Below, piece after piece: positions 9,992 to 50,971 of a DNA stretch of 64,000 bases. Source of the DNA: Negativicutes bacterium (lineage in GTDB: Bacteria > Bacillota > Negativicutes > JAAYSF01); contig JAQWAQ010000003.1 of assembly GCA_028707635.1 (NCBI GenBank), forward strand, positions 804 through 64,803, read 5' to 3'. Each line of letters starts with the position of its first letter. Within the stretch, counting starts at the first letter, position 1. A model generated the notes under the pieces. It was given only the letters and a program-made list of their open reading frames with translations, was not told where the DNA came from and searched no databases. A program made the translations under genes and the position numbers.

Positions 9992-10207
9992 ATGAGTATT
10001 GCGATTAGAATTGATGAAGAACTTTATGAAGAAGCCAAGAAAACTGCAGCTGCCGAATTTCGTACAGTACCCTTGCAGGTTGCTTTTTGGGCTAAAATTG
10101 GCAAAGTTGCGCTAGAAAATCCGGATCTACCTATTGAATTCATCAGGGATATACTCATTGCCAAAACACAGAAGAAATCCGAACCATTTGAATTTATTGA
10201 GCCATGA
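9992..10207 (+). CDS. type II TA antitoxin, ParD-like (RHH)
   Basis: MSIAIRIDEELYEEAK...QVAFWAKIGKVALENPDLPIEFI; RBS GGAGGTG; overlaps the toxin start. Confidence 0.8.
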   Translation: MSIAIRIDEELYEEAKKTAAAEFRTVPLQVAFWAKIGKVALENPDLPIEFIRDILIAKTQKKSEPFEFIEP

Positions 10208-10457
10208 TGCATATAGAGCAAGAATCTACATTTAAACGGACATACAAAAAACTCTACAAAAATCAACTTGCTGAAGTCAATAAGGCCATTAGAGCAATCA
10301 TGGCTGATCCAACAATCGGCGAAGAAAAAAAAGGCGATTTAGCCGGTGTCCGCGTCTATAAGTTTTATGTTGACAACAAAATGTACCTCCTGGCTTACGA
10401 AGTAAACGAAACAATTATGCTCATGGCATTAGGCTCTACCGCGACCTGAAAAAGTGA
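10204..10457 (+). pseudogene. RelE/ParE-family toxin with a C-terminal frameshift deletion
   Basis: IGEEKKGDLAGVRVYKF, LAYEV...ALGS, then a premature TGA at 10447-49; YRDLKK* continues in another frame to 10457. Confidence 0.7.
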
Positions 10458-11897: not shown

Positions 11898-11959
11898 GAA
11901 ATGCGTCTCCTTATCCGAATTACAATAACCTGCACATTATTCCTATATTATATCACATT

Positions 11960-12352
11960 GTCTCCATCAACAATCACTCGAAACAACCTCCGGCTCTCAA
12001 GAATATTATAAAAGCCGATAACATTGCTTTGAGTATAGGCATCCAGATTATCGATAGAATACCGCACCTCTGCCTGATCTGCGAAATTGATTACGATATT
12101 GGGCTTGTACGCTTCAAAAGTCTGCGTAATTACAGACTTATCAGCAATATCCTCCTTGATAAAGGTGAATTTCCCAAAGGGGTTGTTGCTCCAAGCGAGC
12201 ATACTTAAGCTTCACATCATAATAATCATTTATATTATCAATACCAATCACCCGGCAGCCCTGTTCCAGCAGTTTCAGTATCCGATAAAACCTGCTGCGC
12301 CAGTAATGAGGTAGGTTTTAGATCTATCCAAAGATTTATAGGTTGGTTTCAT
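11960..12352 (-). pseudogene. NAD-dependent epimerase (UDP-glucuronate 4-epimerase-like), frameshifted and 3'-truncated
   Basis: ATG 12352: TYLITGAAGFIGY then frameshift; GCRVIGIDNINDYYDVKLKYARL; FTFIKEDIADK; AEVRYSIDN..SNVIGFYNILE, then the homology ends. Confidence 0.85.
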
Positions 12353-12379
12353 CTGCCTGTTCTCTCCCCCTTTTAGATT

Positions 12380-12716
12380 TTACTTTCTCCCGATAGAGTA
12401 ATATTCTACTCCCGCCGCTTTCATTGCTTCAGTTCCATAGAATATTCCTTCCATCATAAACCAAAGGAGTTCGCATAAACTTCTTATAAGTTTCTGGTTT
12501 CACAGCTTTTATCTCGCCCCACTCGGTAAAGATAAAGCAAACATTAGCGCCTTCTAAAGCTTCCTTCACGTTATCAACGTACTTTATGCTTCCCCTGTCG
12601 TTTTTACCTTCAGGATATTTTTTCTTGGAGGCATCTGTACCGACAGGGTCATGTGCCCAAATATCCGCCCCCTACGCCAATAATAAAGGTGCGTTTTCAA
12701 GTAATGCGCTTCGCAA
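12380..12716 (-). pseudogene. ugd: C-terminal remnant of UDP-glucose 6-dehydrogenase
   Basis: Hand translation: LLA*GADIWAHDPVG...EALEGANVCFIFTEWGEIK...PLVYDGRNI / AGVEYYSIGRK*; internal stop and frameshift; the 5' part is missing next to the IS. Confidence 0.75.
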
Positions 12717-12837
12717 GAATTACTTCTTGTGCGAAGTGGCAATGATCTCCGATTTAATGGATTGATAGTGGCTATTCTTGGGTGTAAGCGGTCAAGTACT
12801 TTTTTAAAAAAACGGCCATTAATTTTGACCTCGTCCA

Positions 12838-13270
12838 ATATAACTAAGTCGGCATTTAATAATTGTTTGACTCGCCGTTGGCTGCGTTGGAGCATAGTCT
12901 GTGTCTTTAATATATTTAGCAATTCAAGATGGCTTTTACCGATACCAGGCGGCCCTAAATAAATAATGTTATACGCATCTTTAAGCCAGTGCATTTCCTT
13001 TAGTGTATCTATCTGGCATTTAGAAACAGACGTCTGGAAGCCAAAATCGAAGCTTTCAAGAAGTCCCTGATAAGGGAACTTGGCTTGTTTCATGCGTATA
13101 TCCAGCGATTTCTTCTGCCTAGCTGTTACTTCGGTTTCCAGACATTACTTAAGAAATTCGGGATATGCCGGTTGCTCCTTAACTGCTTGATTAAATAATT
13201 GTGGTAAAGCCTTTTTAAATTCGCCCATATGTAGTTCGGTCAACATCGCAGCAAATTCGGTTCCTGTAAA
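12838..13270 (-). pseudogene. istB: IS21 helper ATPase IstB fragment
   Basis: AKFPY..LESFDFGFQ, LGPPGIGKSH fused by deletion to ADLVILDE; in-frame stop upstream. Confidence 0.8.
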
Positions 13271-13274
13271 ATCC

Positions 13275-14210
13275 CTCAAGTAGTTTTATTGAAGGTATCG
13301 GCTGAAGGTGCTGTTTTTCTAGGGCATGCACTTTCGCCGGTACTTTTTTTGTTGTGCCATGCTCTTTGGCATTACCTGTTCGATCCAGCCAGTCAAGCTG
13401 CGCCTGATTTCAATCTTGCAACGTAGTGAACAGTCGGTGTTTGGCGAAATTGTATTTTACGTACTTTACAGTGGACTCAACCTTGCCTTTAGACCCAGGG
13501 TCACCCTTACGACATAGGTACACTTTAAAGCGCAAAGTTTGTTTAAGTCTTTCAAATTCTTCAGTATATAAAATATCACCGTGATTTTCGCTAACAGCTA
13601 CAAGTTTATCCTGATCGAATACTAATTCTTGTGGCATTCCGCAGATATATTCAAAACAACGTCGCAGCATGGCGGTTAATCGGGCTGTGGTAAAGGGTTG
13701 ATCACTCCATTCGGCATATTTAAATCGTGAATGGGCTAGAACCGGCGCCATACAGTATACTTTTCGCTTGCGACCACCGGAAGTAGGAACGGTAATCTCA
13801 CCGAAGTCAACCTTCATTTGCTGTCCGGAAGACAGCTCATCAACAGCTTCACATTGGTGGTATGCAACGCTTTTTTGTAAGCCATGAGCTTTTCTTAATG
13901 CCGCTACATACCTGCGTACAGTACGTTCACGAAAGCAACTAAATGGATAAAGTTCTTTTAACCAGTCATGAATTTGAGCCGAACTTAAATCAGGATACTG
14001 TTTTAACCGAGCCAGAATCTGTGCTTGATATTTGTCTAGCTTGCTTGATCGGCGCTAGTTTTTTGCCTCATCTCCGCAAACCCTTGCGGATCAATATCCC
14101 AGTATTTGATAATCGTCTTGATATCCAAATCCTAGATTCCGTGCAGTTTGTGATTTGTTCAATCCTTCAGATTTTAATTACTGGATTTCACTATACATTG
14201 GCCACCTCAA
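13275..14210 (-). pseudogene. istA: IS21 transposase IstA fragment
   Basis: HTH N-terminus with a stop and frameshifts; QMKVDFGE, ELVFDQDK, DPGSKGKVESTVKYVK. Confidence 0.85.
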
Positions 14211-14483
14211 CGTTCTGTCTACCCCCTTTCTGACGCTCTAAACAAGCCAGAAAAAACTTCGACGCTTTGGGTTTTATTCCATTTTTAATGGCCAATTTTG
14301 TTCCCTTTTATTTGACCGCTTACACCTTGCTATTCAAAGCTTCCGCACGGCTGCACTTTAACATCCCAGCCATTAATAAATAGGAGCGGCACATTAGGCT
14401 GCGCCCGGCTCTCATTAATAATTTGCCTAAGCATCTTCCTTAAGCCTAGAAATTCATAAACCTTATATAAAAATGCCTCCAAA

Positions 14484-15518
14484 TCATAGTTCATCAAATG
14501 ATGTCAAAAAGTATGAACGGCGATCATCTTGATTTAACAGCAAAAATTCTGCAAATATATTGCTGAATTTATCTGCTCCAATATTGTTAAGATGGCTTTT
14601 ATCTCGAAAATACGAATTTGGAAATTTAGCTATATCAGGTTTTAGCAAGCAAAAATCATAATATTCTAGGCCTTCTTCCTCCGCGAGCCGGGCAAAGAAA
14701 TCATGTGCTTGCTGATAATTTCCAGTGTCGGCAAGTAATGACTTTGGCATGGGGGCAGTAACCAAGACAAGCTCTATATTCTCCTGCTTACAGATTTCTA
14801 TAATTTTTTGTAAATAAAAAAAACCTTCCTCGTTTTTATTCTTGTCGTCCCAGACCGATAAAGGTCTAGCCATTTCTGCGTCCCCGGCCTGATAAGAAGA
14901 AACAACAAAGCCTTTTATGCCATAGGTAAAATAGCCTGATTGAAATGGAAGATATCTTCGATAAGTGGCGTTCATCTTTTCCGCTAGAGTATTCTTCATA
15001 TATCTAAAGTTAAATTTGCTTCTGTATCTGTAACTGTGAAAAAAAACATCGGCGTAATTGTCCGGCTTAAATGCATGAAAAAAATACTCCATTTTATTTT
15101 GCGAAGGAGCAAAGTAATCATAAATAACCAAGCTTGTCATAACATGGTTTTGACTCAATTCGGACGCAAGAAATACAGGATATGTAATCTCATATATTAT
15201 CTGTTTCGGTTTATAAATACTTAACAACTCTTTGATGATATAGTAGCTGTCTTGAGGAGTTTGATTTGAAGAGCCCAAATTAAAAGAATTGATGCCCAAC
15301 TTACTGTCAAATATTGCGGGATCAAATGATTGGTAAGTATGGGAAGCGCCGACGAAAGCAATATCTATGTTTTTTTCCTGTGCGTAAAAATCGTGCATTG
15401 TCCATCGGGTAAAACCATATGCCGGAATCAGCAAAAACGCCAGGATTCTTTCGATAATGAAAAAACCGACTAAAAAGACAGTCAGGCGAATAAAAAATTT
15501 TCTATTAGAACTGTGCAT
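14484..15518 (-). CDS. membrane-anchored SGNH/DltD-like acyltransferase
   Basis: N-terminal TM; FVGASH (catalytic Ser), NLGSSNQ, FRDKSHLN (D-x-x-H); overlaps the MBOAT gene. Confidence 0.75.
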   Translation of the reverse strand: MHSSNRKFFIRLTVFLVGFFIIERILAFLLIPAYGFTRWTMHDFYAQEKNIDIAFVGASHTYQSFDPAIFDSKLGINSFNLGSSNQTPQDSYYIIKELLSIYKPKQIIYEITYPVFLASELSQNHVMTSLVIYDYFAPSQNKMEYFFHAFKPDNYADVFFHSYRYRSKFNFRYMKNTLAEKMNATYRRYLPFQSGYFTYGIKGFVVSSYQAGDAEMARPLSVWDDKNKNEEGFFYLQKIIEICKQENIELVLVTAPMPKSLLADTGNYQQAHDFFARLAEEEGLEYYDFCLLKPDIAKFPNSYFRDKSHLNNIGADKFSNIFAEFLLLNQDDRRSYFLTSFDEL

Positions 15519-16932
15519 ACAGAAACCCCTTTACAATATCAGAACCCTGGACTTGCAGCAACATAATTACGAATATAGCCGCATAGCATACACCGCATCG
15601 TACGATAAATGGAAGATAAGCATACTTCTGGAAATATTTTTCCCGGTCAAGTTCAATGCCGTGTGAGAACAGAGTAATCGCCATACCAACGGCCAAAAGA
15701 AGCAAAAACTTTCCACCCAGTCCAAACGCCAACGACCAGGTGGTAGGGTAAAAAACATATTTGCAGATAATAACCCATGCATCGTGAGCGCTTCCGGCTC
15801 TTATAAAAATAATTAATATGGTGTTAATAAGCATCGTCAACGAGATGCCTAAAACTGTAAACACAACTGGCGGCAATTCCTTTTTTAACTTTTTACGTTT
15901 CTTCGCAAAAAGAGCCTCGGCCGCGACAACAGATCCCATAAAGAGACCCCATAGGAAAGCCGCGACTGAAACCTTGTGCCACAAGCCGCTAAGAACTAAC
16001 GTAATGATTGCCGCAAAAACCGAGGCATAGATGCCATATGCTCGCCAAGCAAACTGGAGAGGAGCAAAGACATAGTCGGAGAGCCAACTTGATAAGCTCA
16101 TATGCCAAGCTCTCCAATACTCTGAAATCGTTTGCTGGAAGAAAGGCGCCTTGAAATTGTGCTTAACTTTATAACCTAAAATCTCACATATACCGACCGA
16201 AATATCCGTATAGGCCGAGAAGTCAAGATACAGTTGAATTAGATATGCAAATGCAACAATCAACCAGCTTAATCCATTGCTCACACTCATATCAGTAAAA
16301 ATTGGAGTAATAGCAAGAGCAAGTCTGTCGGCGATTACTAATTTTTTGAAATATCCCCACAAAATCAACAAAAAACCGTTGCGGAAATTATCCGGGGAAA
16401 ACTGTTTCTCCTGCCTGATTTGCGGTAAAAATTCAATTGCCCGCGTTATAGGACCTGCTACAATTTCGGAAAATAAACAAAGATGCAACAACAAATAGTC
16501 ATAGCGTTTCTCCGGCTCTATTCGTTCAAAATATACGTCAATCAGATAACTCAGGCTCTTAAACATATAATAAGAAAAACCTAGAGGAAAAACAATTGAT
16601 GCGCTAATGCCAACCGGAGAAACCAATGCGTTTAAAAATTGATCGGGAAGCCTTGTATATTTAAGCAAAAAAAATCCAGCCATGATAATAGCTATACAGC
16701 TTATCATAAATACAAACTGCTTCTGCTTGTGTTGTTTTATCATAAGCCTTGCCGACAGATAAACAAATAGCGCGAACAGAACCATAAACAAAGGTGCCCA
16801 TTTCGCCCAGCAATAGTAAAAGAACAGACTTGCCAGAAGCAGTACAAAGGATTTAATTTTCTGAGGGACACAAAAGTATATGCTGAAAACCACAATTAAA
16901 AATAAAATAAAAGAGAATGACGTAAAGGACAT
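15505..16932 (-). CDS. MBOAT family O-acyltransferase (AlgI/DltB/PatA-like)
   Basis: PLGFSYYMFK, GPITRA, YLDFSAYTDI, WRAWHMSLSSWL, LSGLWH; C-terminal FLYAQF. Confidence 0.93.
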   Translation of the reverse strand: MSFTSFSFILFLIVVFSIYFCVPQKIKSFVLLLASLFFYYCWAKWAPLFMVLFALFVYLSARLMIKQHKQKQFVFMISCIAIIMAGFFLLKYTRLPDQFLNALVSPVGISASIVFPLGFSYYMFKSLSYLIDVYFERIEPEKRYDYLLLHLCLFSEIVAGPITRAIEFLPQIRQEKQFSPDNFRNGFLLILWGYFKKLVIADRLALAITPIFTDMSVSNGLSWLIVAFAYLIQLYLDFSAYTDISVGICEILGYKVKHNFKAPFFQQTISEYWRAWHMSLSSWLSDYVFAPLQFAWRAYGIYASVFAAIITLVLSGLWHKVSVAAFLWGLFMGSVVAAEALFAKKRKKLKKELPPVVFTVLGISLTMLINTILIIFIRAGSAHDAWVIICKYVFYPTTWSLAFGLGGKFLLLLAVGMAITLFSHGIELDREKYFQKYAYLPFIVRCGVCYAAIFVIMLLQVQGSDIVKGFLYAQF

Positions 16933-16961
16933 TTATCCTACCAACTTTTCATATTTTATGC

Positions 16962-17201
16962 TTAGATTTTGCGTTCAATAGCATCGGCCATTTCGCCGAC
17001 GTTGGCAAATCCGGAAACTTCCTTCATATCAAATTTAATATGAAAATGCTTTTCTATCGTAATGATAAGGGTAACATACGTCAAGCTGTCCCAATCCTCT
17101 ATATCGGCGGCGGTTGTGGACTCTTTTACGTGAATTGTTTCATCGTCAAAAACATCCTGAAAAATAAGGTTAAGATTCTTGAAAATTTCTTGTCTTGTCA
17201 T
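16962..17201 (-). CDS. acyl carrier protein
   Basis: WDSL phosphopantetheine site; ATG 17201 with RBS GGAGA. Confidence 0.9.
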   Translation of the reverse strand: MTRQEIFKNLNLIFQDVFDDETIHVKESTTAADIEDWDSLTYVTLIITIEKHFHIKFDMKEVSGFANVGEMADAIERKI

Positions 17202-17598
17202 TTTTCTTCTCCGTTTCAATAAGTTCTATCATCCCTGCGCTCTCATTTATAAGAAAACATACTTCCCTGTTGTCTATTGCGGGCGTTTTGAATGGCTCGC
17301 CTAATAAAACATAGTTGCGATCAACAAACTTCTGCGCTGTCTCCCGAATATTCTCAGTTTCATAGCAAATATGGTATGGGGCGTTTTTATAGCGCTTCAG
17401 TAGACGCCAAGCTGCGGATTCCGGATCAATCGGGCAAATTAACTCCACCATATAACCGCCATTTGAAACAAAACATATACTTTGGTGCATATCTTCATAG
17501 TATTTGCTTTCCTTGACAATTTCGTATCCCAAAAAAAGAAATTCTTCCAGCGCATCTTCTAATCTTTTAACCAAATATCCGATATGATGTATTCTCAT
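17170..17598 (-). CDS. VOC-family protein (methylmalonyl-CoA epimerase-like)
   Basis: IHHIGYLV, MVELICP, PYHICYET, MIELIE metal-ligand pattern. Confidence 0.85.
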   Translation of the reverse strand: MRIHHIGYLVKRLEDALEEFLFLGYEIVKESKYYEDMHQSICFVSNGGYMVELICPIDPESAAWRLLKRYKNAPYHICYETENIRETAQKFVDRNYVLLGEPFKTPAIDNREVCFLINESAGMIELIETEKKNDKTRNFQES

Positions 17599-17599
17599 A

Positions 17600-18520
17600 T
17601 TAGCTTGCCTTTCTCGCTAAAATGGAAACTGTGATCGGAAGCTTGCGCTTCAAACAAAATTCTAGGTTTTTGTTGCGGTATAAAAACAATTTCATCTCTA
17701 GAATAGTAAGACCATTTTCGCAGAATAGATTCGCAAGTTCGTCCGGACTCCTGAATAGTGAAATATGATCAATTGCAGGAGCGTTAATCGCAGTTGTTAT
17801 GTGTATGAGAGTTTTTTCGTGAGCCAGATCAGAGCATTTTTTTATAAACGCACCCGGGTTTTCTACATGTTCCAAAACTTCTCCGCATACTATTGCGTCA
17901 AAAGCATAAGCACCTGATTCCATAGTCAAAAAATCAAGTTTTTTAAGTTCATATTTTTGCGGCTGTGTCATTGAATGCCATCTAAGAAAGGATTGTACCA
18001 TATGTAAGCTGTCATCACTGATATCAATACCTACAAACCGTCCATAGTCAAAGCTTTGAACCGCTGTTTTAAAATAATATCCATGACCTACCCCAACCTC
18101 CAGATACAATTTCCCCTTAAAATTATGGAAAGATTGCAGAAAATATTTCCTCATAGCGGAGTGGTTTGGCCATACGAACAAAGACAAAAGAAGTCCGATC
18201 TGATAAGAACGCATATAGTGCGTATCCTTAGAGAGCATATATTCGTTCACTTCCTTATAGGTTGAGTACCTATATTTCCCGTGCTCAATAAAATATTTGC
18301 TCTCCTCCAAAGTATCATCATTGAAAATTTGATAGCAGTCTAGGATATCTCTTTCCGTCATACCGTAAACATCACAAATAAATTGAATGCAGGAATCAAA
18401 TTCTCGCTTTTCCTGTTCAGTCATACCGCTATAGAGTTCAGCGATATGGCTTTGAAAAGGGAAACGATCTAAAAGTTGGCCTATCATAGATTCCAAACGT
18501 GAAAAATCTGATATTCCCAT
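17600..18520 (-). CDS. class I SAM-dependent methyltransferase
   Basis: YLEVGVGHG motif I, GIDIS, CGEVLEHVENP. Confidence 0.85.
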   Translation of the reverse strand: MGISDFSRLESMIGQLLDRFPFQSHIAELYSGMTEQEKREFDSCIQFICDVYGMTERDILDCYQIFNDDTLEESKYFIEHGKYRYSTYKEVNEYMLSKDTHYMRSYQIGLLLSLFVWPNHSAMRKYFLQSFHNFKGKLYLEVGVGHGYYFKTAVQSFDYGRFVGIDISDDSLHMVQSFLRWHSMTQPQKYELKKLDFLTMESGAYAFDAIVCGEVLEHVENPGAFIKKCSDLAHEKTLIHITTAINAPAIDHISLFRSPDELANLFCENGLTILEMKLFLYRNKNLEFCLKRKLPITVSILARKAS

Positions 18521-18533
18521 TGGCTTCTTCTCC

Positions 18534-20330
18534 TTATGTCAGCATTTCCAGGTGGATAACCTTATTTTTTTTTACATAGTTACTGATATTAAGCGACCAT
18601 ATGGTATTGTGGGAGTCGTCTTCATTTATGCATTCAAACCCTAGCTGTCGATAAAAATCCCTGACCATACCATTTTTCGCTGTGGGAAAGTAATAACCGA
18701 TCAAGCGATCCAGTCCAACGGCCTGTGCTTCTTCAGCGAGCCGATCCAGCATGGCCAACTCCATATCCCGCTTCAACACCCGGCAACTCATCAACCAGAG
18801 TTCTATATGTAATGCGTATTCTTGGATTCTGCCAAGCACAACTGAGACAATTCCATTATCGCCAAATTTATCCCTAAGCTGTCCGCACAGACGTATATAC
18901 GCCGGATTTGTCGCGACCTGTTGCATTTCGCTTTCAGTATAGCGTTTGGTGGTCAGATTAAACTGGTTGGATTTATTAGTAAGTTGTACAATACGTTGCA
19001 TATTTATCGGTTTGAAATCCTCAATGGAACCTTGCATCGAAAGGGAATACAGGTATTCTTCATAGTTTCCAAAGCATCGCTGTTCTTGTTTCCTTGAAAC
19101 ATCCTGCCGATACAGCTCACTGCGCTTTCTGTCTTCTGCAGATAACGACACATTTTCAAAGTAGCCAGAATGATCCAGCACGGAAATATACTCTTCAATC
19201 CTTCCAATGTCAGGTGTTGCAACACTGGGCATTCGTACCGACACAATTTCGCGTTCTGCCGGATTATCGTCCACAAAGACGAGACTGTCAGTACCGATAT
19301 TCAACTCTTCGGCAATGGCATATATATTCTCATCTTTATTATTCCAGTTGGCTTTAATTACAGTAAAATCTTCAGGATTTAACAAAGAATTCGGATGCTG
19401 CAAGCCAGCCAGAGCGTTTTGCTCATCATTTTTAGAACAAATAGTCAGTATTATGCCCATGTCTTTATGAAACTTAATATACTCCTGAAATTCGGCATAT
19501 GCTTGTCCCATAGGCATTTCGGGACCTATTTCCAGATTCTCCACACCATCGTCACCGACAACGCCGCCCCAGAGCGTATTATCCAAATCTAAGACAAACG
19601 CTTTTTTATTCTTCCCCAAAATCGCTTTGATGATATTGGCTAGATTAAATGCAAATTCAGGGATAGCATTCACATTAAGCGCGTATTTGTACATATACCA
19701 ATAGAAGGAAGAATGCCACTTATCCAGCCCATATACTGCTGATAAATAATCAATGTCATGAATATAAAAATCTCCATGATTACGGGCAAATCCATAAATT
19801 TTTTGATTGAGACGGGAAACATAATTTGATTTTCCCCTTAGATCGCTTATGTCACGATTGCCAAGCAGTCGATAATTCGGACGTTCAAAATTATTTTGAA
19901 TAATGGGACATTGATATGTCTCTTTCAAGTTAGTCCACAGCGAAACGAAATGGTCGAACTGTGCTTCCAGCATACGTTCAACCTCATCATCACTATTTTG
20001 CTGTGAAGGCCAGTTTATTATATTACGGCTACTCGTATGCACAAATATAATATCTGGTTTGAAGGTTGCCAATTCCTGATTTTCAAACATCGCATCCTGC
20101 CAATAGCGATTGTACTCACTTTCATAGAAAACAGGACGAATACCATGGTTTAACAAAAACAACTCTAAAATAGAGACTATTTCACTGGTTGTTGATCCCC
20201 CTAGGACAGCAATACGTTTCTCAAAAAATTCCTTTGATGAGGAAAGGAGCTTTTTGCGCAAAGATTTTTTCTTTTTCAGGATGAAATCGCTGTCAAATGG
20301 AAAATTCATGATACACTCACACATCCCCAT
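18534..20330 (-). CDS. fkbH: FkbH-like HAD-IIIC glyceryl transferase/phosphatase (start may be ATG 20309)
   Basis: VLDLDNTLWGG (HAD DxD), FVDDNPAER, QLTNKSNQFNLTT, DKFGDNG, WLMSCRV. Confidence 0.9.
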   Translation of the reverse strand: MGMCECIMNFPFDSDFILKKKKSLRKKLLSSSKEFFEKRIAVLGGSTTSEIVSILELFLLNHGIRPVFYESEYNRYWQDAMFENQELATFKPDIIFVHTSSRNIINWPSQQNSDDEVERMLEAQFDHFVSLWTNLKETYQCPIIQNNFERPNYRLLGNRDISDLRGKSNYVSRLNQKIYGFARNHGDFYIHDIDYLSAVYGLDKWHSSFYWYMYKYALNVNAIPEFAFNLANIIKAILGKNKKAFVLDLDNTLWGGVVGDDGVENLEIGPEMPMGQAYAEFQEYIKFHKDMGIILTICSKNDEQNALAGLQHPNSLLNPEDFTVIKANWNNKDENIYAIAEELNIGTDSLVFVDDNPAEREIVSVRMPSVATPDIGRIEEYISVLDHSGYFENVSLSAEDRKRSELYRQDVSRKQEQRCFGNYEEYLYSLSMQGSIEDFKPINMQRIVQLTNKSNQFNLTTKRYTESEMQQVATNPAYIRLCGQLRDKFGDNGIVSVVLGRIQEYALHIELWLMSCRVLKRDMELAMLDRLAEEAQAVGLDRLIGYYFPTAKNGMVRDFYRQLGFECINEDDSHNTIWSLNISNYVKKNKVIHLEMLT

Positions 20331-20483
20331 TCAATTAGATTGATTGTAGTTTTGAAGAGCCTCTCTTAATCACTTGCTAAGGCCAACAAATCAATGCTCA
20401 AGCATTCGCTTTCGTGGCGCACAACCATTCAAAGCCGTTCTCTAAGGCGCTAAGGTAACACAATACGATTGCGCTTCACTCCG

Positions 20484-20513
20484 TTATTCTACACTATGGT
20501 GGATTATTCCTGT
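20484..20513 (-). promoter_or_regulatory. sigma-H-type promoter upstream of the fkbH cassette
   Basis: ACAGGA-N18-GAATAA. Confidence 0.55.
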
Positions 20514-20569
20514 ATTTTCGAGCTTTTTTAACTTCCTTAATTGAAAAGCGAGACGCCACTTTGCAAGGC

Positions 20570-21935
20570 TGTAAACGCTAATATATAAATGAGCCACTTT
20601 GGCACAAAACGCTCACGAAAAAATGAGCCACCTTAAGTAAATTAACCTTTAAAATAGACTTAAGTGAGTCTGTTTTGGAGGTGTAAAAGGTGGTAATCAC
20701 ATTGGACGACTATGCTGAAATACGCAGGCTATTTAATTCCGGCATCAGCAAGCGTGCCATTGCCAAAAAGCTCGGCACTTCTAAAAATACAGTAGATAAA
20801 TACTGCCAAGGAGATACAGCTCCATGGAACAGAAAAAAGTACAGCCGTCAATCAACAATTATCAGCGATGACGTAATGGAATTCATTCGACAATGCTTAG
20901 AAGAGGATGAACGCGAAGGTGTTCGTACGCAGAAGCATACCGCTAAGCGGATATTCAACCGGTTAGTTGATGAATGCAATTTTACCGGAGGAGAAAGCAC
21001 AGTTCGAAGAACTGTAAATCAATTAAGGGAAAAGGTGCAGAAACCTTTTATTCCCCTGGAATTTTCTCCTGGTGAAGCACTTCAAATAGACTGGGGAATT
21101 GCTAAGATATACTTAGATGGTCATAAGATGGATGTTAATCTGTTTTGTGCCGGGCTCTGTACCAGTGATGCTCCCATCGTATTCGCTTTTGAAAAGCAAA
21201 ACGAAGAAAGCTTTCTTGAGGCTTTAGTACGAGCCTTCCAGCATTTTGGTGGAGTCGCTAGACGTGTATTCTTTGAAAATGCGAAAGTAGCCTGTTAAAG
21301 AAGGATTTGGCTCGCGTGCTATTAAACAAGATCGATATACGGCTCTCGCTGCTCATTATGGATTTGAAACTGTTTTCTGCAATCCATCTGAAGGACATGA
21401 AAAAGGCTTGGTTGAAGGGCTGGTTGGCTGGGCTAGATGAAACATTCTAGTACCTATCCCCAAAGTCGAAAGTCTGGAAGAATTAGATGGCCAGCTTTTG
21501 AAGCGTTGCAATAAATATCTGGATCACATCGTCAGAGGCAAGACATCAAGCGTAGGCGCCCTTCTTAAGTTTGAAAAAGAAGCTCTTATGAAATTGCCAA
21601 GCTATGTATTTGACACAAGCCGCAGCGTTAATACTTACGTGGACAGTTATTGTACAGTGCGTTTTGACACTAATAACTACTTTGTACCTATTTCTCATTG
21701 CGGTCATGAGGTGGCTGCAAAAGGTTACGGTACAAGGGTTGTAATATATCACCGCAGTACGGTAATTGCTAAACATAACCGCTGTTATGGCAAAAGGCAA
21801 ACCATTTATGAATTAGCTCATTATCTCCCTCTTTTAGAGAAAAGACCACGCTCTATCTTAAATGCTAAACCGGTAAGACACGCTTTACCACAGGATATCT
21901 TAGAATGGTTAGCTAGTTTGCCGGTAACTTTTTGA
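20570..21935 (+). mobile_element. second, different IS21-family remnant (left end plus broken istA; no istB or right end seen)
   Basis: TGTAAACGCT left end with a repeated AAATGAGCCAC motif; istA follows. Confidence 0.8.
20690..21935 (+). pseudogene. istA: IS21 transposase IstA, frameshifted
   Basis: ALQIDWG, RVFFENAKVA, +1 frameshift near 21293, GHEKGLVE, in-frame TGA near 21437, TVRFDTNNY. Confidence 0.85.
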
Positions 21936-22104
21936 TTGTCAAACACACTCTGTCAAAGAATATCATATTCTTTTAACCTAGAAAAGTGCCTGTCCCCTTG
22001 TCTGCACGCTAGTCTTGATGTGCCGGCCCTTGGGCGTAAAGAAAAGAATGGTGGCCGGATACTTAGGATTGATTGTCCGGATGATACAGGAATGCCGGTC
22101 TTAA

Positions 22105-23655
22105 TTAACGAAAATAGCCATAATTATTGAAAACCCTAATAATCATACCCTGAAAATACTTCAATTCAGCGCTTTTAACTAGATAGGATACGGCTATGTA
22201 TGTGCCCGCGCCTACGAGCGACGCTATACTTAGCCGAAGTGGCAACCCTAACGCAAGCATTACATTCTCTAGGTATTGGAACATCAGCCCAGAAAACCCA
22301 ACCATGAAGAAACACGCAACAATAACTTTTATCATAGAGACTGCGATTTGCCTTTTTTCCAAAAAAATCATACGGCGCTTTAAGATAATCACTAATATAA
22401 GCATCCCTATTGAATTTGCAATCGAGTTGGCCAGAGCCAGTCCGCCATGCGACAAATAGTTTATAAGTATAATTCCCATGCATAAATTAACCGAAACAAT
22501 TATAAATGAAACAATCACCGGGGTTTTCGTATCCTGTTGCGCATAAAATGCCCGATTAAGAAGTTCAATTATTCCTGTACCGAGCAGTCCCAATGTAAAA
22601 AATTGCAATGCCGTTACGGTAAGTGCTGTTGCCTGTGGCGTAAAAGCACCCCGTTCAAAGAGTATTTGAATTATCGGCTTGCTAAATAATATTAGGTACG
22701 CCATCAACGGAATCATGATGAACAATATCATACGGATAGCTAAACTCAACGTATTCAAATACTTTTTTTCATCCCCGGAAAAGTACAATGTTGACAGTCT
22801 TGGGTAAAGCACAGTAAGAAAGGGTATAATTAACATGGCAACAGTGGCAGTATTTAACCCGTTTGCATAAGATAGTGCAGAAATGCTTCCTTCCGGTAGG
22901 CTTGAAGCGAGTATTCTAACAGTAAATAGGTTTAGGTAGTCAACCGATGCCCACAACCCTAAGGGAATGGCCAAAGAAAAAACTCTTATGACCCCCTCAT
23001 TCTTTATATCTATATTAAATTTAAGCCGTATACCAATTCTTCTTAATCCAATCCATTGTATCATTACCTGAAGTAATACCCCTAACGACACAGCCATAGC
23101 AATTGCTTGTATATCGAAATAGGAATGGAATGCAACTAAAAATGCTATAACCGAAAAATTATATACAAGACCTGCAAAAGGGGGAAAGAAAAATTCTTCT
23201 TCCGCTTGTTGCACAGCGCTGAAAACACCGAGCAAAGCGCTCATTACCACTATCGGTAGTAAAATTTGAAATAATGACGCTGCCATGCTTACTGTCTCTT
23301 GGTTAAACCCTGGCGATATTATTTTAATAATCGTTTCCGCGCTTAGAAAACTAATGCTACAAATTGCCGTCAGAATTAGCACCAGAGTAGTTATTAATGT
23401 ATTAATAAGATTTCTCGCATCATTTATACGATTCTGAGATACATATTGACTGTATATCGGGATAAAGGCTGTTATCATGCCAATCTGCAATATTCCTCCA
23501 AAAGTAATCGGAATCATATTTGCGACAACGAATGCATCCATTAAGGAAGTAGCACCAAAATATTTTGCATAAGCCACCTCTCTTAAAAAACCAAGTAACT
23601 TACCCAAAGATGACACCCCAGTAATTAGTATGGTGGCTTTAATGAGTTTATTCAC
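22105..23655 (-). CDS. murJ: MurJ/MviN-like lipid-linked glycan flippase
   Basis: KLLGFLRE..YFGA...DAFVVA, AFIPIYS, RAFYAQQDTKTPV, GLALANS; about 13 TM segments. Confidence 0.8.
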   Translation of the reverse strand: MNKLIKATILITGVSSLGKLLGFLREVAYAKYFGATSLMDAFVVANMIPITFGGILQIGMITAFIPIYSQYVSQNRINDARNLINTLITTLVLILTAICSISFLSAETIIKIISPGFNQETVSMAASLFQILLPIVVMSALLGVFSAVQQAEEEFFFPPFAGLVYNFSVIAFLVAFHSYFDIQAIAMAVSLGVLLQVMIQWIGLRRIGIRLKFNIDIKNEGVIRVFSLAIPLGLWASVDYLNLFTVRILASSLPEGSISALSYANGLNTATVAMLIIPFLTVLYPRLSTLYFSGDEKKYLNTLSLAIRMILFIMIPLMAYLILFSKPIIQILFERGAFTPQATALTVTALQFFTLGLLGTGIIELLNRAFYAQQDTKTPVIVSFIIVSVNLCMGIILINYLSHGGLALANSIANSIGMLILVIILKRRMIFLEKRQIAVSMIKVIVACFFMVGFSGLMFQYLENVMLALGLPLRLSIASLVGAGTYIAVSYLVKSAELKYFQGMIIRVFNNYGYFR

Positions 23656-26992: not shown

Positions 26993-28837
26993 TTATTTGT
27001 TCAGCTTAATCTCAAATTTAAAATTACATTTATCGCTCAAACTGCATTTAACGACAATACAGTTGATTTCTTCTTTTTTAAGATAATATAAACTCCTATA
27101 AGCTTTACAAACCTCTACATTAACTGAATCAAACTTAACAACACATAGCTTTTCGCCTTCATCAAATACCTTAAACCCACCTGGAGCTAGTTTTACTTCA
27201 TACGGCGTGTGAAAAAGAAAGCTACAACTATCACCATTTCCGATTACTTCATCTGCTATCTCGTATCCCCGCTCTGTCTGCACAATCCGTCGGGTATGCT
27301 TGTAGCCGTTCTTGGAAATCATAGTACTGATAAAGTTGTCTTCTGTGAAATCCACATCCACACGGCTCGTCCAATTATATATCATGAAATTACTATAGCT
27401 TCCCATTTGCTCTACACCCTGCACTTTTACAGTGTTGTGGGCCGCGGTCTTAGCTAGGTTCTTCCCAATCTCATTTGCATAAGAGTATGTACCGCTGTCA
27501 CAGAGAATGTTTTTTCCCTTGTGCCACAAATCTAGATGCATACCATCCATGTGAGCAGGTCTGGTTTTAAAGTCTTGCAGGCAAATCATTAGAAAACCGT
27601 TGTTATGTCGCAATGTATACAATCCCGCATCATAAAATGCTATTGACTTCTTTTCGATTCTTACAACCGGTAGGCTATCAGCATCACTAAACCATATTAA
27701 TTCTTCATCATAATAGCCTTTTTTAAATAATCTTTCACCTGTTACAAGAGCATAGGCCGTATTGATAACGGGTGTAAAATCTCTATATCCACAAACTGTT
27801 ACCGGAAATATAAGCGCCCCATCATTTGAACCATAATTTGGAACATCCCCGATCTCATCTTGACATTGATACATTAGTAGTGCACTGTTTTTAATCAGGT
27901 TCTTCGATTTATCTGAAATTGACATACCTGTCTTTTCGCTTATCTTAAATACGCACTCAATAATCTGAAGTACAAATCTCTGATAGTTGAATGAGTACTG
28001 AATGTAACCACCATCCGGCATAAACTGACTTTCAATTTCTTTATTAAGTAGTTTATAAGCCTTGCTCAACCTCTGCTTATCGCCGCAGCACCAAGCTCCG
28101 ATAATCAAACCGCAAATCTCTGAAAGGGTATGATTATTCTTTATACACTTATGAGCATAAAAGAAATTGGAAAGAACTTTCTTATAACATACTTCAACTA
28201 AACGACAAACATTTTTTTCATCATCGCCTGTGGTAAGCTGTTCAAAAACCTTATACGCCATCAGTGCATTTATCATACGGAGCGTACATTCCTGTCCGCA
28301 TTTATAATTTGCGCCATATGGATATGGATTGTCTGTCAACCATTGCTTAAGCTGCTCTGAAAATGCAATGTAATATTTCTCGTCACCCGTAATCAAATAG
28401 GCTCTGGTGAAATAGAAAAAGTGTGTGAAACGAGATGCTTCCCAAATGGCCTTAATATCCCCTCGTTTAGCGTCAAAATCAGGTATCCTATACCACTTGA
28501 CACTTCTACTGGCCTCCTGCTTCGTGATTGGACTGTAATGCCAGTTTATTGGATTGCCATAGTCCATTTCAATTGATGAAAAGCCAGTAATAATACCATT
28601 TAGGGCATTGTCGGCAATTGCAACAATATCATGTTTCTTTTCTGCCGGTAAAGCTATTAAAAAATCCTTAATCCTATCTACATCGAGATTAAATATATCT
28701 ACTCTTTTTACTTCTACATTGCTTTCAAATAAATGCTCGGTGGCAGGTATCTTCGTCATCATTTTCAACTTAGCTGAATACAATAAGCGATTGACTACCC
28801 AACCAATACCATATTCAGTTAAAATTGATTTAATCAT
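26993..28837 (-). CDS. heparinase II/III-family protein
   Basis: WEASRFTHF, NNHTLSE, HMDGMHLDLW..LCDSGTYSY, AAHNTV. Confidence 0.8.
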   Translation of the reverse strand: MIKSILTEYGIGWVVNRLLYSAKLKMMTKIPATEHLFESNVEVKRVDIFNLDVDRIKDFLIALPAEKKHDIVAIADNALNGIITGFSSIEMDYGNPINWHYSPITKQEASRSVKWYRIPDFDAKRGDIKAIWEASRFTHFFYFTRAYLITGDEKYYIAFSEQLKQWLTDNPYPYGANYKCGQECTLRMINALMAYKVFEQLTTGDDEKNVCRLVEVCYKKVLSNFFYAHKCIKNNHTLSEICGLIIGAWCCGDKQRLSKAYKLLNKEIESQFMPDGGYIQYSFNYQRFVLQIIECVFKISEKTGMSISDKSKNLIKNSALLMYQCQDEIGDVPNYGSNDGALIFPVTVCGYRDFTPVINTAYALVTGERLFKKGYYDEELIWFSDADSLPVVRIEKKSIAFYDAGLYTLRHNNGFLMICLQDFKTRPAHMDGMHLDLWHKGKNILCDSGTYSYANEIGKNLAKTAAHNTVKVQGVEQMGSYSNFMIYNWTSRVDVDFTEDNFISTMISKNGYKHTRRIVQTERGYEIADEVIGNGDSCSFLFHTPYEVKLAPGGFKVFDEGEKLCVVKFDSVNVEVCKAYRSLYYLKKEEINCIVVKCSLSDKCNFKFEIKLNK

Positions 28838-37816: not shown

Positions 37817-39784
37817 ATGTCAGCATGGGCACGGTTTTTCAAAAACATTCAGCAAGACTTCAAGCTATTTATCTTCACTCTTTTTGTGTTATGCCTATAC
37901 CGAGTAGCATTTATCGGACTCTTACATCAATATTTAGGCGATACAACAGCTCTATCTGACATACTTATGTCGCTCTTTTATGGCTTACGATTAAGCTTGA
38001 AAAGTGCTGGTATAATTGCCCTGCTAACCTTTCTATGCTGTACAATCACAAATTTATTCATTAAAAGTAAAGAGGTTGAAAAAGTCCGGTACTACTTAGG
38101 CTCCATCTACACTATTTTACTTACTCTTCTTTTTCATACCCGGATTCCCTACTACGAAGAATTCCACTCAGCTTTCGACCAGATTATTTTTAACACCTTT
38201 AAGGATGACACTATCGCGTTATTCGATACGCTTGTCAAGCAGTACCAACTCCCCTTGCGGCTGTTCTCGGTTGCTGTTATTTCCTTTATTCTCTGCCGAC
38301 TTCTTAAAGTATTTTTGGCAACTAAGACATGTCCTTCACCAAAATTTTCCAGCAAACCTCGCAGATTAGTCTTTCGCACAACAGTCATTCTTATGATAGC
38401 CACGTTCATGGTATTCACCCGGTTTGCCGGCAGCTTTAGCTACGCCAGAGCTATCCATTGGGAGAATTCAGCATTAACCAAAGATGCGTTTCTCAATGAA
38501 GCTATTTTAGATGATGTTCAAGCCTTATATCGTGCCTATGCCGGCTATGAACGACTACGCAACGCCGAGGGACTTGACATTAAAGCAGATAAAGTCGCCG
38601 AATATGGCAGGCAACTGGCAAACCGCTCAATAATGACCAACAATATTGACGATTACTTTAAAAAAGAAGCCCAAGGTCCTAAAATTCAAAAACCGCGACA
38701 CATATTTGTTATCATCGGTGAAGCTTATGCCGAATGGCCGCTTCTGCCAAAATATAAAGACCTAAATATAGCCAACGGCTTAAAAAATATTGCTGCAAAA
38801 GAAAATGCAGTAACTGTGAAAGCCTTCCTACCCACCGGACCAAACACTGCCCAAGCTGTAAACGGAATCGTCACCGGGTTAGCTGAGGTCAACCTTTACC
38901 CTAACTACCACCCTGAGACTTATAAGCAACCGTATGCTACCGCAATAGCAGCCCAAATGAAAAAGCTCGGCTATAAAACATATTTCTGGTATGGTGGCTT
39001 TTCATCTTGGCAAAAGATAAAAGAGTTAGCCTTGTCACAAGGCTTTGATGAATTCTACGGCTGCAATGATTTGCAAGACAATTCCGGTAATGCTTGGGGC
39101 ATGGAAGATAAGTTTTTTTTAAAGGAAATTGCCGCGAAAACAACAGACGACCAACCAAGTTTTCACGTCATTTTAACAACCTCAAATCACCCGCCTTACA
39201 CGGTTAATTTAGTGCAGGAAGGCTTTGATGAAGAGACAGTGAATAGCGTTCCGGAATACTTTAAGGAAACAAAAGACTGGCAGCAAAAACTCGGTCACTT
39301 CTGGTACGCTGATAAGATATTAGCTGACTTTGTCAGTACAATGCAAAAAAAATACCCGGACAGCTTATTCGCCATCACCGGCGATCACGCTAATCGGGTG
39401 AATATTGAGCCAAACCCGAGCCTTTACGAACGCTATGCAGTTCCTTTTATCTTATATGGAAAGGGTGTCAATAAATCAATCATTCCTGACAATGCGGCCG
39501 GGACTCACCTAGGTATTGCGCCAACGCTATTTGAGCTAATCGCCCCGAAAAGCTTTGAATATTATTCCATAAGTGATAGCCTAACTAAGGGTAATACAAT
39601 TGGAACAAACCACGAATTATGGATTACCGCCAACAATATTGGCAAAACGGGAACCCCTACTATCGAAACTCTTCCTAACGCTAACTCCAAGAAATCAAGC
39701 CCTACTATCGAGATAATAAAGCAATATTCAGACTCAATTCAAGCCCTCTCCTGGTGGAGAATAAAAAACGGGCGAAATATCTAG
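37817..39784 (+). CDS. LTA synthase family (sulfatase/alkaline-phosphatase-fold) membrane protein
   Basis: About 5 N-terminal TM segments, IIGEAY, GPNTAQ (catalytic Thr position), TTSNHPPY, ITGDH. Confidence 0.85.
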   Translation: MSAWARFFKNIQQDFKLFIFTLFVLCLYRVAFIGLLHQYLGDTTALSDILMSLFYGLRLSLKSAGIIALLTFLCCTITNLFIKSKEVEKVRYYLGSIYTILLTLLFHTRIPYYEEFHSAFDQIIFNTFKDDTIALFDTLVKQYQLPLRLFSVAVISFILCRLLKVFLATKTCPSPKFSSKPRRLVFRTTVILMIATFMVFTRFAGSFSYARAIHWENSALTKDAFLNEAILDDVQALYRAYAGYERLRNAEGLDIKADKVAEYGRQLANRSIMTNNIDDYFKKEAQGPKIQKPRHIFVIIGEAYAEWPLLPKYKDLNIANGLKNIAAKENAVTVKAFLPTGPNTAQAVNGIVTGLAEVNLYPNYHPETYKQPYATAIAAQMKKLGYKTYFWYGGFSSWQKIKELALSQGFDEFYGCNDLQDNSGNAWGMEDKFFLKEIAAKTTDDQPSFHVILTTSNHPPYTVNLVQEGFDEETVNSVPEYFKETKDWQQKLGHFWYADKILADFVSTMQKKYPDSLFAITGDHANRVNIEPNPSLYERYAVPFILYGKGVNKSIIPDNAAGTHLGIAPTLFELIAPKSFEYYSISDSLTKGNTIGTNHELWITANNIGKTGTPTIETLPNANSKKSSPTIEIIKQYSDSIQALSWWRIKNGRNI

Positions 39785-50008: not shown

Positions 50009-50971
50009 TTAGAATTTATAAGTCACTGTTGTACGGAAAGAATTGTAATTGTCGGTGCCATGGACTTCTTCCATGTCTTTATAGAATACATTAAAGGTAG
50101 TATCCTGGGTCAGTTTGTGGTTGTAGCTGTAATACATCCCTTTACCTGATGGATCAAAGTCTGTCCAGCCTCCCATATCACCATTGGCTTCCACTTTGCT
50201 GTACATGGCTGAGAATGAATTTTTAGCATCGAACGCATAGCTTGCACCCAAAACATATGCTTGATTGTTATCATCAGCATTCGATTTCGTATACTCAGCG
50301 AAGTAGCCTACTTTGCCTTGATTAAAGGCAGCATCTAAGGCCCAGTGATTAGTTGTGTCGCCGCCGTCTACATCATAGCGGGCAAGAGTTCCACCGACAG
50401 TCCAGTTTTTAGCAGGATTATAGGAACCATGTACACTATACACTTTATTATCAGGGCCGCCTACATTGTAATTATTATAGCCGTTTTCCACACCAGCGAT
50501 AAAGTTTAAATTAGTTGCACCAAGTTTAGTAGAAGCACTTACACCATCAATGGAACCCATGTTGCTGCCGATATAACCTTCAGTGCTGTACAGCAGTGCT
50601 GTCGCACCAATAGTTGCGCCTTGACGACCAAGGTTGTATGTCACATTATCGCCTTTTAAAATAACACCAAAGCGGTCAATGGTCGAGATGGAATCACGAG
50701 TTGCAGAAGCTCTAAAATCAGCACTGCTTAAGCCGGCATGCAATCTTTGTGTTGCAAAGCGGGCATAAAGATCAGTATTCGCATCCAGAGCCAGTTTGGC
50801 ATTTAGCAAGAAGGTGCTTCTAGCGCTTTCCGATGTACCGTTAGCATCCGAATCATTCCAACGGTAGTGCACTTGTGCTGAACCGTCGAATTCAACAGGA
50901 GCGGCCATTACTACACCCATCGACATAGCCATTGCTGCAGCCACAGCTGCTGCGAGAAGTCTTTTTTTCAT
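50009..50971 (-). CDS. outer-membrane porin, OmpM-barrel-like, lacking an SLH domain
   Basis: Signal peptide followed directly by amphipathic strands (FDGSAQVHYRW); C-terminal TVTYKF. Confidence 0.75.
   Translation of the reverse strand: MKKRLLAAAVAAAMAMSMGVVMAAPVEFDGSAQVHYRWNDSDANGTSESARSTFLLNAKLALDANTDLYARFATQRLHAGLSSADFRASATRDSISTIDRFGVILKGDNVTYNLGRQGATIGATALLYSTEGYIGSNMGSIDGVSASTKLGATNLNFIAGVENGYNNYNVGGPDNKVYSVHGSYNPAKNWTVGGTLARYDVDGGDTTNHWALDAAFNQGKVGYFAEYTKSNADDNNQAYVLGASYAFDAKNSFSAMYSKVEANGDMGGWTDFDPSGKGMYYSYNHKLTQDTTFNVFYKDMEEVHGTDNYNSFRTTVTYKF

Follow-up and report, generated by a model that had tools for sequence, protein, structure and literature searches.

The locus analysed here raises a simple question: what could an FkbH-like loading enzyme do in a lipopolysaccharide (LPS) locus, in the company of a membrane-bound O-acyltransferase (MBOAT) as well as an SGNH-type protein? 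FkbH-domain proteins load a glyceryl unit onto carrier proteins, and 1,3-bisphosphoglycerate is the substrate of OzmB/FkbH. The window, i.e. the whole stretch of DNA that was analysed, is 64,000 nucleotides long and belongs to contig JAQWAQ010000003.1 of a Negativicutes bacterium (assembly GCA_028707635.1); the cassette in question occupies positions 14484-20330. Our answer, held with moderate confidence, is that it encodes a carrier-protein-fed MBOAT-SGNH system that would acylate an envelope glycan, likely the O-antigen, with a glycolysis-derived (O-methyl)glyceryl group.

A packed six-gene cassette in an O-antigen locus

The cassette includes the following genes:

18534..20330, minus strand: FkbH-like loader (FkbH_N, HAD-IIIC phosphatase and C-terminal Cys-bearing transferase domains)
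17600..18520, minus strand: class I S-adenosylmethionine (SAM) methyltransferase (Methyltransf_12/23/11 matches; N-terminal helical domain of ~130 residues)
17170..17598, minus strand: vicinal oxygen chelate (VOC) metalloenzyme, glyoxalase I / methylmalonyl-CoA-epimerase-like (Glyoxalase_4, 3e-16)
16962..17219, minus strand: acyl carrier protein (ACP; PP-binding, 2e-5, and several ACP models)
15505..16932, minus strand: MBOAT (PF03062, 3.6e-15; C-terminal FLYAQF)
14484..15518, minus strand: DltD-like SGNH protein, predicted to be membrane-anchored (fold match, transmembrane helix 4-30, Ser59/Asp306/His309)

These six minus-strand genes are packed as in an operon. Only 13 nt separate the FkbH gene from the methyltransferase gene and 1 nt the latter from the VOC gene; the ACP gene overlaps the 3' end of the VOC gene and is followed, after 29 nt, by the MBOAT gene, which overlaps the SGNH gene by 14 nt. 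The original prediction, made from the sequence alone, had described six tightly coupled intact genes with their catalytic motifs: all the open reading frames (ORFs) were found on the minus strand where it placed them, they are full length compared with their homologues, and every motif it named is present in the cassette proteins and kept in homologues. Two starts probably need correction. The FkbH start is probably at 20309 and not at 20330, because the exact-match database protein has 591 aa, and the ACP probably begins at the ATG at 17201, since all models align from residue 7. Neither a megablast search with the cassette in complete E. coli genomes nor an Rfam scan of 11900-22200 gave a match.

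In a large LPS locus, the cassette stands between the GDP-mannose genes and those for the O-antigen. Its location within an O-antigen locus had been proposed at the outset, and LPS and O-antigen genes were indeed found around it. The same proposal held that polyketide synthases (PKS) and non-ribosomal peptide synthetases (NRPS) are absent, and the scan, which covered part of the ORFs of the window, turned up no domain of either kind. A role in the supply of extender units to a PKS or NRPS was rejected, as neither the window proteins scanned nor the linked loci examined include a PKS/NRPS domain.

Loader, carrier protein and predicted tailoring enzymes

The loader scores well over the cutoff of TIGR01686 (4.8e-87, 292 bits versus 146.65; profile positions 3-320 of 323). 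It further matches TIGR01681 (2e-18) and FkbH_N PF21211 (6e-13), and its residues 34-397 match PDB 3slr (BF1531; 1e-54). Neither its HAD motif, D248-L-D250-N-T252, nor its S515-C516-R517-V518 motif varies among 22 close homologues, and relatives down to 33% identity keep both as well. By analogy with OzmB, the conserved C-terminal cysteine would be the acyl-enzyme residue. The ACP carries the phosphopantetheine motif W-D-S45-L (Ser45 in the 85-aa ORF being Ser39 if the start is 17201); its best PDB match is 2lml, a 'putative ACP' (4e-16), and the PDB matches listed include no DltC chain.

In the methyltransferase, motif I (E141-x-G143-x-G145-H-G147) and the block E214-x-L-E-H218 are invariant in 40 homologues. 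Its AlphaFold2 model (pLDDT 94.7) retrieves generic class I methyltransferases only, the O-methyltransferase StiD and BioC being among many. We consider it a predicted O-methyltransferase acting on glyceryl-S-ACP.

The VOC protein retains H5, E52, H76 and E125, i.e. H/E/H/E metal ligands; like Y75, C78 and Y79, these residues do not vary among 15 locus-linked homologues. It lies below the equivalog cutoffs of TIGR03081 (42 bits versus 115) and glyox_I (21 bits versus 120) and is, by these sequence features, a distinct subfamily with its own PYHxCY motif. Its closest PDB matches are 2qh0/3hdp, deposited as glyoxalase I (5e-27); human methylmalonyl-CoA epimerase (MMCE, 5e-5) is more distant. Since the nearest solved relatives were deposited as glyoxalase I, the reaction of the VOC protein is a guess. 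The glyoxalase I and methylmalonyl-CoA epimerase chemistries both pass via an enediolate beside a thioester, and for this reason we prefer C2 epimerisation: the VOC protein would probably act, as an epimerase, at C2 of a 2-hydroxyacyl thioester. By sequence, 2qh0/3hdp themselves fall within the FkbH-linked VOC subfamily; in vivo, these two proteins may act on the thioester of an acyl carrier protein and not on a glutathione hemithioacetal.

The putative export pair

The MBOAT matches the DltB model TIGR04091 (1e-42) with 146.5 bits, under its equivalog cutoff of 375. The DltB structures 6bug/8jem match residues 11-387 (4e-18), beyond which extend ~88 C-terminal residues. Two histidines stand in motifs, His277 (WHMS) and His319 (GLWHK), and the second aligns with the WHG histidine of DltB. 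The C-terminus, KGFLYAQF, includes an FXYXXF motif whose tyrosine is Tyr472. This tyrosine is the acyl shuttle established for DltX and PatA; the motif is carried by the DltX microprotein in Dlt systems and is fused to the MBOAT's C-terminus in PatA/AlgI-type enzymes (PMC12148441). Among the FkbH-linked full-length MBOATs of the survey described below, 57 of 64 have a strict F.Y..F at their end, and seven have near-variants that keep the tyrosine. No credible small DltX-like ORF with FXYXXF was found in 13900-20800, where the single match is antisense inside the SGNH gene.

The SGNH protein gave no local Pfam match at E <= 0.01 and no PDB sequence match. A word-index search returned only 3 homologues and an exhaustive HMMER search 6953 family representatives. 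In an alignment of 58 family members, G57, S59, Q86, G203, P256 and H309 are invariant and D306 is near-invariant. The AlphaFold2 model built on this alignment (pLDDT 95.7) includes an N-terminal transmembrane helix (residues 4-30), and Foldseek ranked first, at the level of the fold and with modest TM-scores, the Enterococcus and Streptococcus DltD structures 6pfx, 3bma and 6o93 (E 6e-7 to 2e-5), above other SGNH esterases and PatB. A precomputed database annotation assigns the protein to PF27429, a Pfam family of recent date that the local copy lacks.

Comparison with known acylation systems

At present, two classes of MBOAT-SGNH pathways are distinguished: Dlt systems, in which a carrier protein is the donor and the shuttle, DltX, is separate, and acetyl-CoA systems, which have a fused shuttle and are described as working without a carrier protein (PMC12148441). 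With its carrier-protein donor and fused shuttle, and no DltX, the cassette can be viewed as a hybrid that, by its motifs and gene content, combines features of both.

The original prediction had called the system Dlt-like. This stands for the layout of loader, carrier, MBOAT and SGNH protein, with the order DltA-C-B-D in a relative; it does not stand for the MBOAT, whose fused FXYXXF belongs to the PatA/AlgI class and which has no DltX. As in Dlt, a cytoplasmic loader would charge a small phosphopantetheinyl carrier, the MBOAT is homologous to DltB and DltD is the best fold match of the SGNH protein. However, the loader of Dlt is an adenylating enzyme, whereas that of the cassette is an FkbH protein (HAD phosphatase/transferase) that would use a glycolytic acyl phosphate. 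Moreover, unlike in Dlt, the shuttle is fused to the MBOAT, which scores under the DltB equivalog cutoff, the carrier is ACP-like by its listed PDB matches, and the predicted acyl group is a neutral hydroxy-acid and not D-alanine.

Resemblances to PatA/PatB and AlgI/AlgJ/AlgX include the catalytic histidine of the MBOAT, its two extra C-terminal helices, the terminal FXYXXF and a separate SGNH transferase; furthermore, many FkbH-linked loci pair the MBOAT with a DHHW/AlgX-like instead of a DltD-like partner. However, those systems use acetyl-CoA without a carrier (PMC12148441), whereas the cassette, by its gene content, encodes an ACP, a loader and tailoring enzymes.

The cassette shares the HAD and cysteine motifs of FkbH and a carrier protein as partner with the FkbH/OzmB-type routes to glyceryl-ACP in polyketide, tetronate and NRPS pathways (methoxymalonyl-ACP; the loading module of suomilide/aeruginosin). 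The biosynthesis proposed for suomilide, which likewise has an FkbH domain load the glyceryl unit, offers a precedent for O-methylation of a tethered glycerate, the FkbH domain and an O-methyltransferase giving O-methylglycerate (PMC13122637). Unlike in these pathways, the acyl-ACP is predicted to feed a membrane export and transfer pair in an LPS locus, and hydroxymalonyl-ACP dehydrogenases, like PKS and NRPS, are lacking among the window proteins scanned.

The substitution of FkbH for DltA, central to the original prediction, gains support. The nearest relative that the word-index search gave for the SGNH protein, P0123 (36% identity), sits in an operon encoding an AMP-binding protein, a 77-aa carrier, an MBOAT and the SGNH protein, i.e. 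in the order DltA-C-B-D, with a second such system nearby. The cassette encodes no AMP-binding (DltA-type) protein, and FkbH would thus occupy the place of DltA; FkbH-ACP genes are linked to like MBOAT and SGNH genes in the window and in many genomes. Metagenomic contigs (L004-L006) carry two distinct AMP-ligase/carrier/MBOAT/DltD-like systems in a single amino-sugar glycan locus, for instance L004 6643-10966 and 13688-18288.

The two halves of the cassette have different nearest relatives. Identity to the proteins of locus L088 reaches 60% for FkbH, 59% for the ACP, 58% for the methyltransferase and 42% for the VOC protein, and just 27% for the MBOAT; the MBOAT and SGNH proteins find their nearest counterparts in the pair of another locus, L007 (46% and 35%). 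Judged by these identities, the cassette is a mosaic whose loader and export halves are evolutionarily separable.

Recurrence of the core and its partners

An alignment built from close FkbH homologues was used to scan one genome per species (185,579 species genomes). It detected at least 579 stretches that encode FkbH relatives, the best match having 59% identity, and the best 80 loci (53-59% identity) were surveyed: their six-frame ORFs were searched with the proteins of the window and an SGNH-family profile, and partners up to 10 kb from FkbH were counted. The loci being selected by similarity to this FkbH subfamily, the partner frequencies describe it alone. The loci come mostly from Clostridia, and also from Synergistaceae, Endomicrobiellum, Odoribacter and Leptolinea.

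An ACP gene was found in 75 of the 80 loci, usually directly downstream of FkbH, and an MBOAT gene in 63, often directly 3' of the ACP gene. Bacterial genomes seldom encode MBOATs, and, judged from this general rarity, such a linkage is far beyond chance. The extracytoplasmic partner was DltD-like in 26 loci and DHHW/AlgX-like (PF14286) in 25. Other genes were less frequent: VOC and MaoC-type dehydratase in 15 loci each, short-chain dehydrogenase/reductase (SDR) in nine, transketolase subunits in seven, aldo-keto reductase in five and the methyltransferase in a single one. The full six-gene set was also found in four loci, namely L088 (beside a PglF-like gene), L082, L090, which is acidobacterial and in which a phosphopantetheinyl transferase gene adjoins the set, and L093. 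The co-occurrence elsewhere on which the original prediction had staked itself is thus there, in the ACP and MBOAT counts as in these four loci, and the arrangement is real, recurring across many other genomes far above chance expectation.

These counts point to a conserved core, FkbH-ACP-MBOAT with an extracytoplasmic SGNH-type partner, to which, on this comparative evidence, the VOC protein and the methyltransferase are optional tailoring additions. The core also occurs as a stand-alone four-gene FkbH-ACP-MBOAT-SGNH operon beside the housekeeping genes BacA and FtsK (L091). Tailoring varies with the partner: 23 of the 25 DHHW-partnered systems are essentially without tailoring genes, and the DltD-like-partnered ones come with VOC, MaoC and SDR, transketolase/aldo-keto reductase, or VOC and methyltransferase genes. 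Examples of other tailoring sets on the FkbH-ACP core are L059 11757-17596, L092 9001-14810 and L002 9074-11756. From its enzyme families, the combination of MaoC dehydratase and SDR would possibly give lactyl- or pyruvyl-type units.

Nature of the acyl group

The original prediction had left room for a modified glycerate, and the methyltransferase argues for one. The methyltransferase family is spread over many phyla. In the neighbourhoods of its homologues that were examined, FkbH and VOC are present in six of six and the ACP in five of six (L094 ends at a contig edge); MBOAT-SGNH accompanies them in L088, L090 and L093. A JGI contig carries the methyltransferase set without MBOAT, beside Wzx/Wzy and N-acyltransferase-like genes. 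Another neighbourhood, the Synergistaceae flagellin locus L089, resembles the flagellin locus of Campylobacter jejuni. It combines FkbH-ACP-VOC-x-methyltransferase with ACP-DUF2920-methyltransferase beside FlaG and flagellin genes; its methyltransferase is 55% identical to that of the window, and its DUF2920 protein lies in the locus corresponding to that of Cj1295.

In C. jejuni, we take cj1299 and cj1300 to encode an ACP and a methyltransferase. A flagellin sugar of this species, a pseudaminic acid, bears a 2,3-di-O-methylglyceroyl amide that needs Cj1295 (PMC3068675). Strains in which cj1302, an fkbH-domain gene, is a pseudogene, or which lack cj1301, 'annotated as an epimerase', have no dimethylglyceroyl sugars (PMC7099621). 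The cj1301/cj1302 genes of strain NCTC 11168 are thus like the cassette in tying an fkbH-domain gene and an 'epimerase' to a methylated glyceroyl group on a surface glycan. Unlike in the proposed system, the C. jejuni acyl group is an amide placed on a cytoplasmic nucleotide-sugar precursor in a Cj1295-dependent manner, with no MBOAT or SGNH protein involved.

The constant linkage of the methyltransferase and the C. jejuni/Synergistaceae parallel suggest that FkbH, ACP, VOC and methyltransferase form a module for O-methylated glyceryl-ACP. By this analogy the acyl group is probably O-methylglyceroyl, and most likely mono-O-methylglyceroyl, since the window encodes one methyltransferase only. 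The acceptor is probably the O-antigen, judging from location only.

Proposed mechanism and alternatives

We propose the following mechanism. FkbH (D248/D250, C516), given its family membership and intact motifs, would use 1,3-bisphosphoglycerate to charge Ser45 of the ACP with a glyceryl unit. On the ACP, as gene linkage and the C. jejuni/Synergistaceae parallel suggest, the VOC protein would act at C2, likely as an epimerase, and the methyltransferase would O-methylate a hydroxyl, giving (O-methyl)glyceryl-S-ACP. By homology with DltB and PatA, the MBOAT would then, on the cytoplasmic side, accept the acyl group carried by the ACP and, through His319, transfer it to Tyr472 of FLYAQF at the outer face, a step that would need no DltX. 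Finally, its fold and operon position suggest that the SGNH protein would pick up the acyl group on Ser59 and esterify a hydroxyl of the envelope glycan in the periplasm. From the location of the cassette, the acceptor would most likely be the O-antigen or an undecaprenyl-pyrophosphate-linked O-unit.

Several points weigh against this interpretation, whose backing is comparative genomics alone. The likeness of the SGNH protein to DltD is of fold level only (TM 0.39-0.44, 13-15% identity). The fold search with the methyltransferase does not separate O- from C- or N-methylation, nor does it indicate substrate or regiochemistry, and the closest solved relatives of the VOC protein were deposited as glyoxalase I, not as epimerase. 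The survey loci were picked by likeness to one FkbH subfamily and their ORFs were called crudely; 17 of the 80 have no MBOAT in reach, and some but not all of these are on truncated contigs. Promoter and terminator scans of the cassette gave no signal above shuffled background. Furthermore, remnants of IS21 insertion sequences (IS) part the cassette from the other O-antigen genes on both sides; for this reason the cassette may be a recent, possibly unexpressed arrival.

Among the alternatives, the one that survives best, although we consider it unlikely, is that the same machinery serves another acceptor, such as peptidoglycan, the core or lipid A of LPS, a capsule or a secondary polymer of the cell wall, or a glycoprotein. 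Peptidoglycan, teichoic acids and alginate are the targets of known MBOAT-SGNH pairs (PMC12148441). In addition to the separation of the cassette from the O-antigen genes by the IS remnants, the core operon stands elsewhere beside housekeeping genes (L091), and glycosyltransferase neighbours were detected in only 18 of the 80 loci, in an insensitive single-sequence phmmer search that is not proof of their absence. However, the cassette of the window does lie between GDP-mannose and O-antigen genes, and L088, L092 and L001 are glycan loci too.

An acyl group other than (methyl)glycerate is improbable. FkbH might load another phospho-acid, or the glyceryl-ACP might be remodelled to a lactyl-, pyruvyl- or C-methylated unit. 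The alternative tailoring sets found in other genomes (MaoC and SDR; transketolase and aldo-keto reductase) argue that the FkbH-ACP platform makes several products, and neither the glyoxalase I relatives of the VOC protein nor the fold of the methyltransferase, silent on regiochemistry, speaks for one product in particular. Against such a group stand the full conservation of the HAD and cysteine motifs of FkbH and its score over the FkbH-domain cutoff, the presence of the FkbH/VOC/methyltransferase/ACP quartet in flagellin-glycan loci, and the C. jejuni fkbH-domain and epimerase genes, which track di-O-methylglyceroyl sugars.

The cassette could also be an inactive passenger of an IS21-mediated transfer, with intact frames but with genes unexpressed or uncoupled from any polymer in this host. 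The degenerate IS21 fragments on both flanks, the truncated epimerase pseudogene at 11948-12202, the lack of an outstanding promoter signal and the mosaic structure, with a loader half ~60% identical to Clostridia genes and an export half nearest to another lineage, all agree with this scenario. We nevertheless give it little credence: the six ORFs are full length with every catalytic residue intact, and it is the transposase genes that show decay, which suggests that the cassette has been retained under selection.

The least credible alternative, that methylglyceryl-ACP serves N-acylation of an amino sugar within the cytoplasm, as has been proposed for C. jejuni pseudaminic acid, while MBOAT-SGNH is an unrelated adjacent acetyl-CoA O-acetylation system, can point to FkbH-ACP-VOC-methyltransferase loci without MBOAT and with N-acyltransferase-like genes (L089; the JGI contig), to the amino sugars made by the O-antigen locus of the window (PglE/PglF-like genes) and to the use of acyl-CoA by the fused-shuttle MBOATs studied to date, but runs against the ACP gene lying directly upstream of an MBOAT gene that itself overlaps the SGNH gene, the proximity of MBOAT and FkbH genes in most of the surveyed loci, the four-gene FkbH-ACP-MBOAT-SGNH operons without other transferase, and the SGNH relatives in AMP-ligase/carrier/MBOAT operons.

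Novelty and implications

The original prediction knew of no biochemical characterisation of this gene set, and full-text literature searches turned up none: no paper found by them links FkbH with DltB, SGNH, O-antigen or teichoic acid, and FkbH and MBOAT are co-mentioned only in papers on NRPS clusters, where their roles are unrelated. At about even chances, the carrier-protein-fed system proposed for the window would belong to a large undescribed class of envelope acylation, in which an ACP charged by FkbH with a glycolytic intermediate, with optional tailoring, and a fused-shuttle MBOAT with an SGNH/DHHW partner esterify surface glycans. Such a class would be abundant in gut Clostridia and would also be found in Negativicutes-like diderms, Acidobacteria, Synergistota, Bacteroidota and Elusimicrobiota; its acyl groups would be epimerised and O-methylated, dehydrated and reduced, or transketolase-extended.

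If this is true, PatA/AlgI-type MBOATs can take carrier-protein donors, and the ATP-dependent loader of Dlt is predicted to have been swapped for an enzyme tapping 1,3-bisphosphoglycerate. The acyl chemistry would be new for surface glycans, consisting of neutral, hydrophilic C3 hydroxy-acid esters, and glyceroyl, methylglyceroyl and lactyl-type esters would be unrecognised decorations of these glycans for which the genes provide a signature, allowing prediction from sequence. Moreover, it would bear on O-antigen and serotype diversity, on recognition by phages and antibodies and on the gut Clostridia that carry the core operon. The FkbH, ACP, VOC and methyltransferase module would, for its part, explain the dimethylglyceroyl group of Campylobacter flagellin sugars.

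Genomic environment of the cassette

The O-antigen genes of the window encode a MurJ-like flippase, a hexapeptide acetyltransferase, Wzy, a UDP-sugar dehydrogenase, PglC/D/E/F-like proteins (bacillosamine-type), Wzz and a WaaL-like ligase; there are also glycosyltransferases from families 2, 4 and 9 and genes for heptose activation. LPS assembly is represented by LptA/B/C/F-G, an LpxL-like late acyltransferase for lipid A and an isomerase resembling KdsD. The features that flank the cassette, and those found beside the lpt/lpx genes, are:

11948-12202, minus strand: truncated NAD-epimerase/dehydratase pseudogene
12584..13817, minus strand: degenerate IS21-family remnant on the downstream flank of the cassette, with an IstB fragment and an integrase-core fragment in truncated ORFs (IstB_IS21, 6e-16; rve, 4e-7)
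20690..21935, plus strand: degenerate IS21-type transposase remnant on the upstream flank of the cassette (HTH_7 and Mu-transpos_C_2, 6e-20, in two ORFs)
50009-50971, 51221-52510 and 53318-54472, minus strand: Gram-negative-type porin and two SLH-domain proteins, beside lpt/lpx genes

No direct or inverted repeats were found between the two IS flanks, and as they share none, a composite transposon is not demonstrated. The porin and the SLH-domain proteins point to an outer membrane and, with the LPS genes, to a diderm host; by sequence, they suggest OmpM-like outer-membrane tethering in a diderm Firmicute (Negativicutes-like).

Other genes of the window are of side interest. A type II toxin-antitoxin pair (9992-10449, plus strand), with overlapping stop and start codons, lies on the margin of the low-GC O-antigen region and comprises a ParD-like antitoxin of 71 aa (PF11903, 1e-15) and a ParE-like toxin of 81 aa (PF15781, 2e-25). 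In the O-antigen block, a heparinase II/III-like protein of 614 aa is encoded between a family 4 glycosyltransferase gene and a UDP-sugar dehydrogenase gene (26993-28837, minus strand). Finally, a sulfatase-family membrane protein of 655 aa, encoded on the opposite strand (37817-39784, plus strand), adjoins the WaaL-like ligase; its architecture is like that of lipoteichoic acid (LTA) synthases and phosphoethanolamine transferases, and it may be a further LPS-modifying enzyme.

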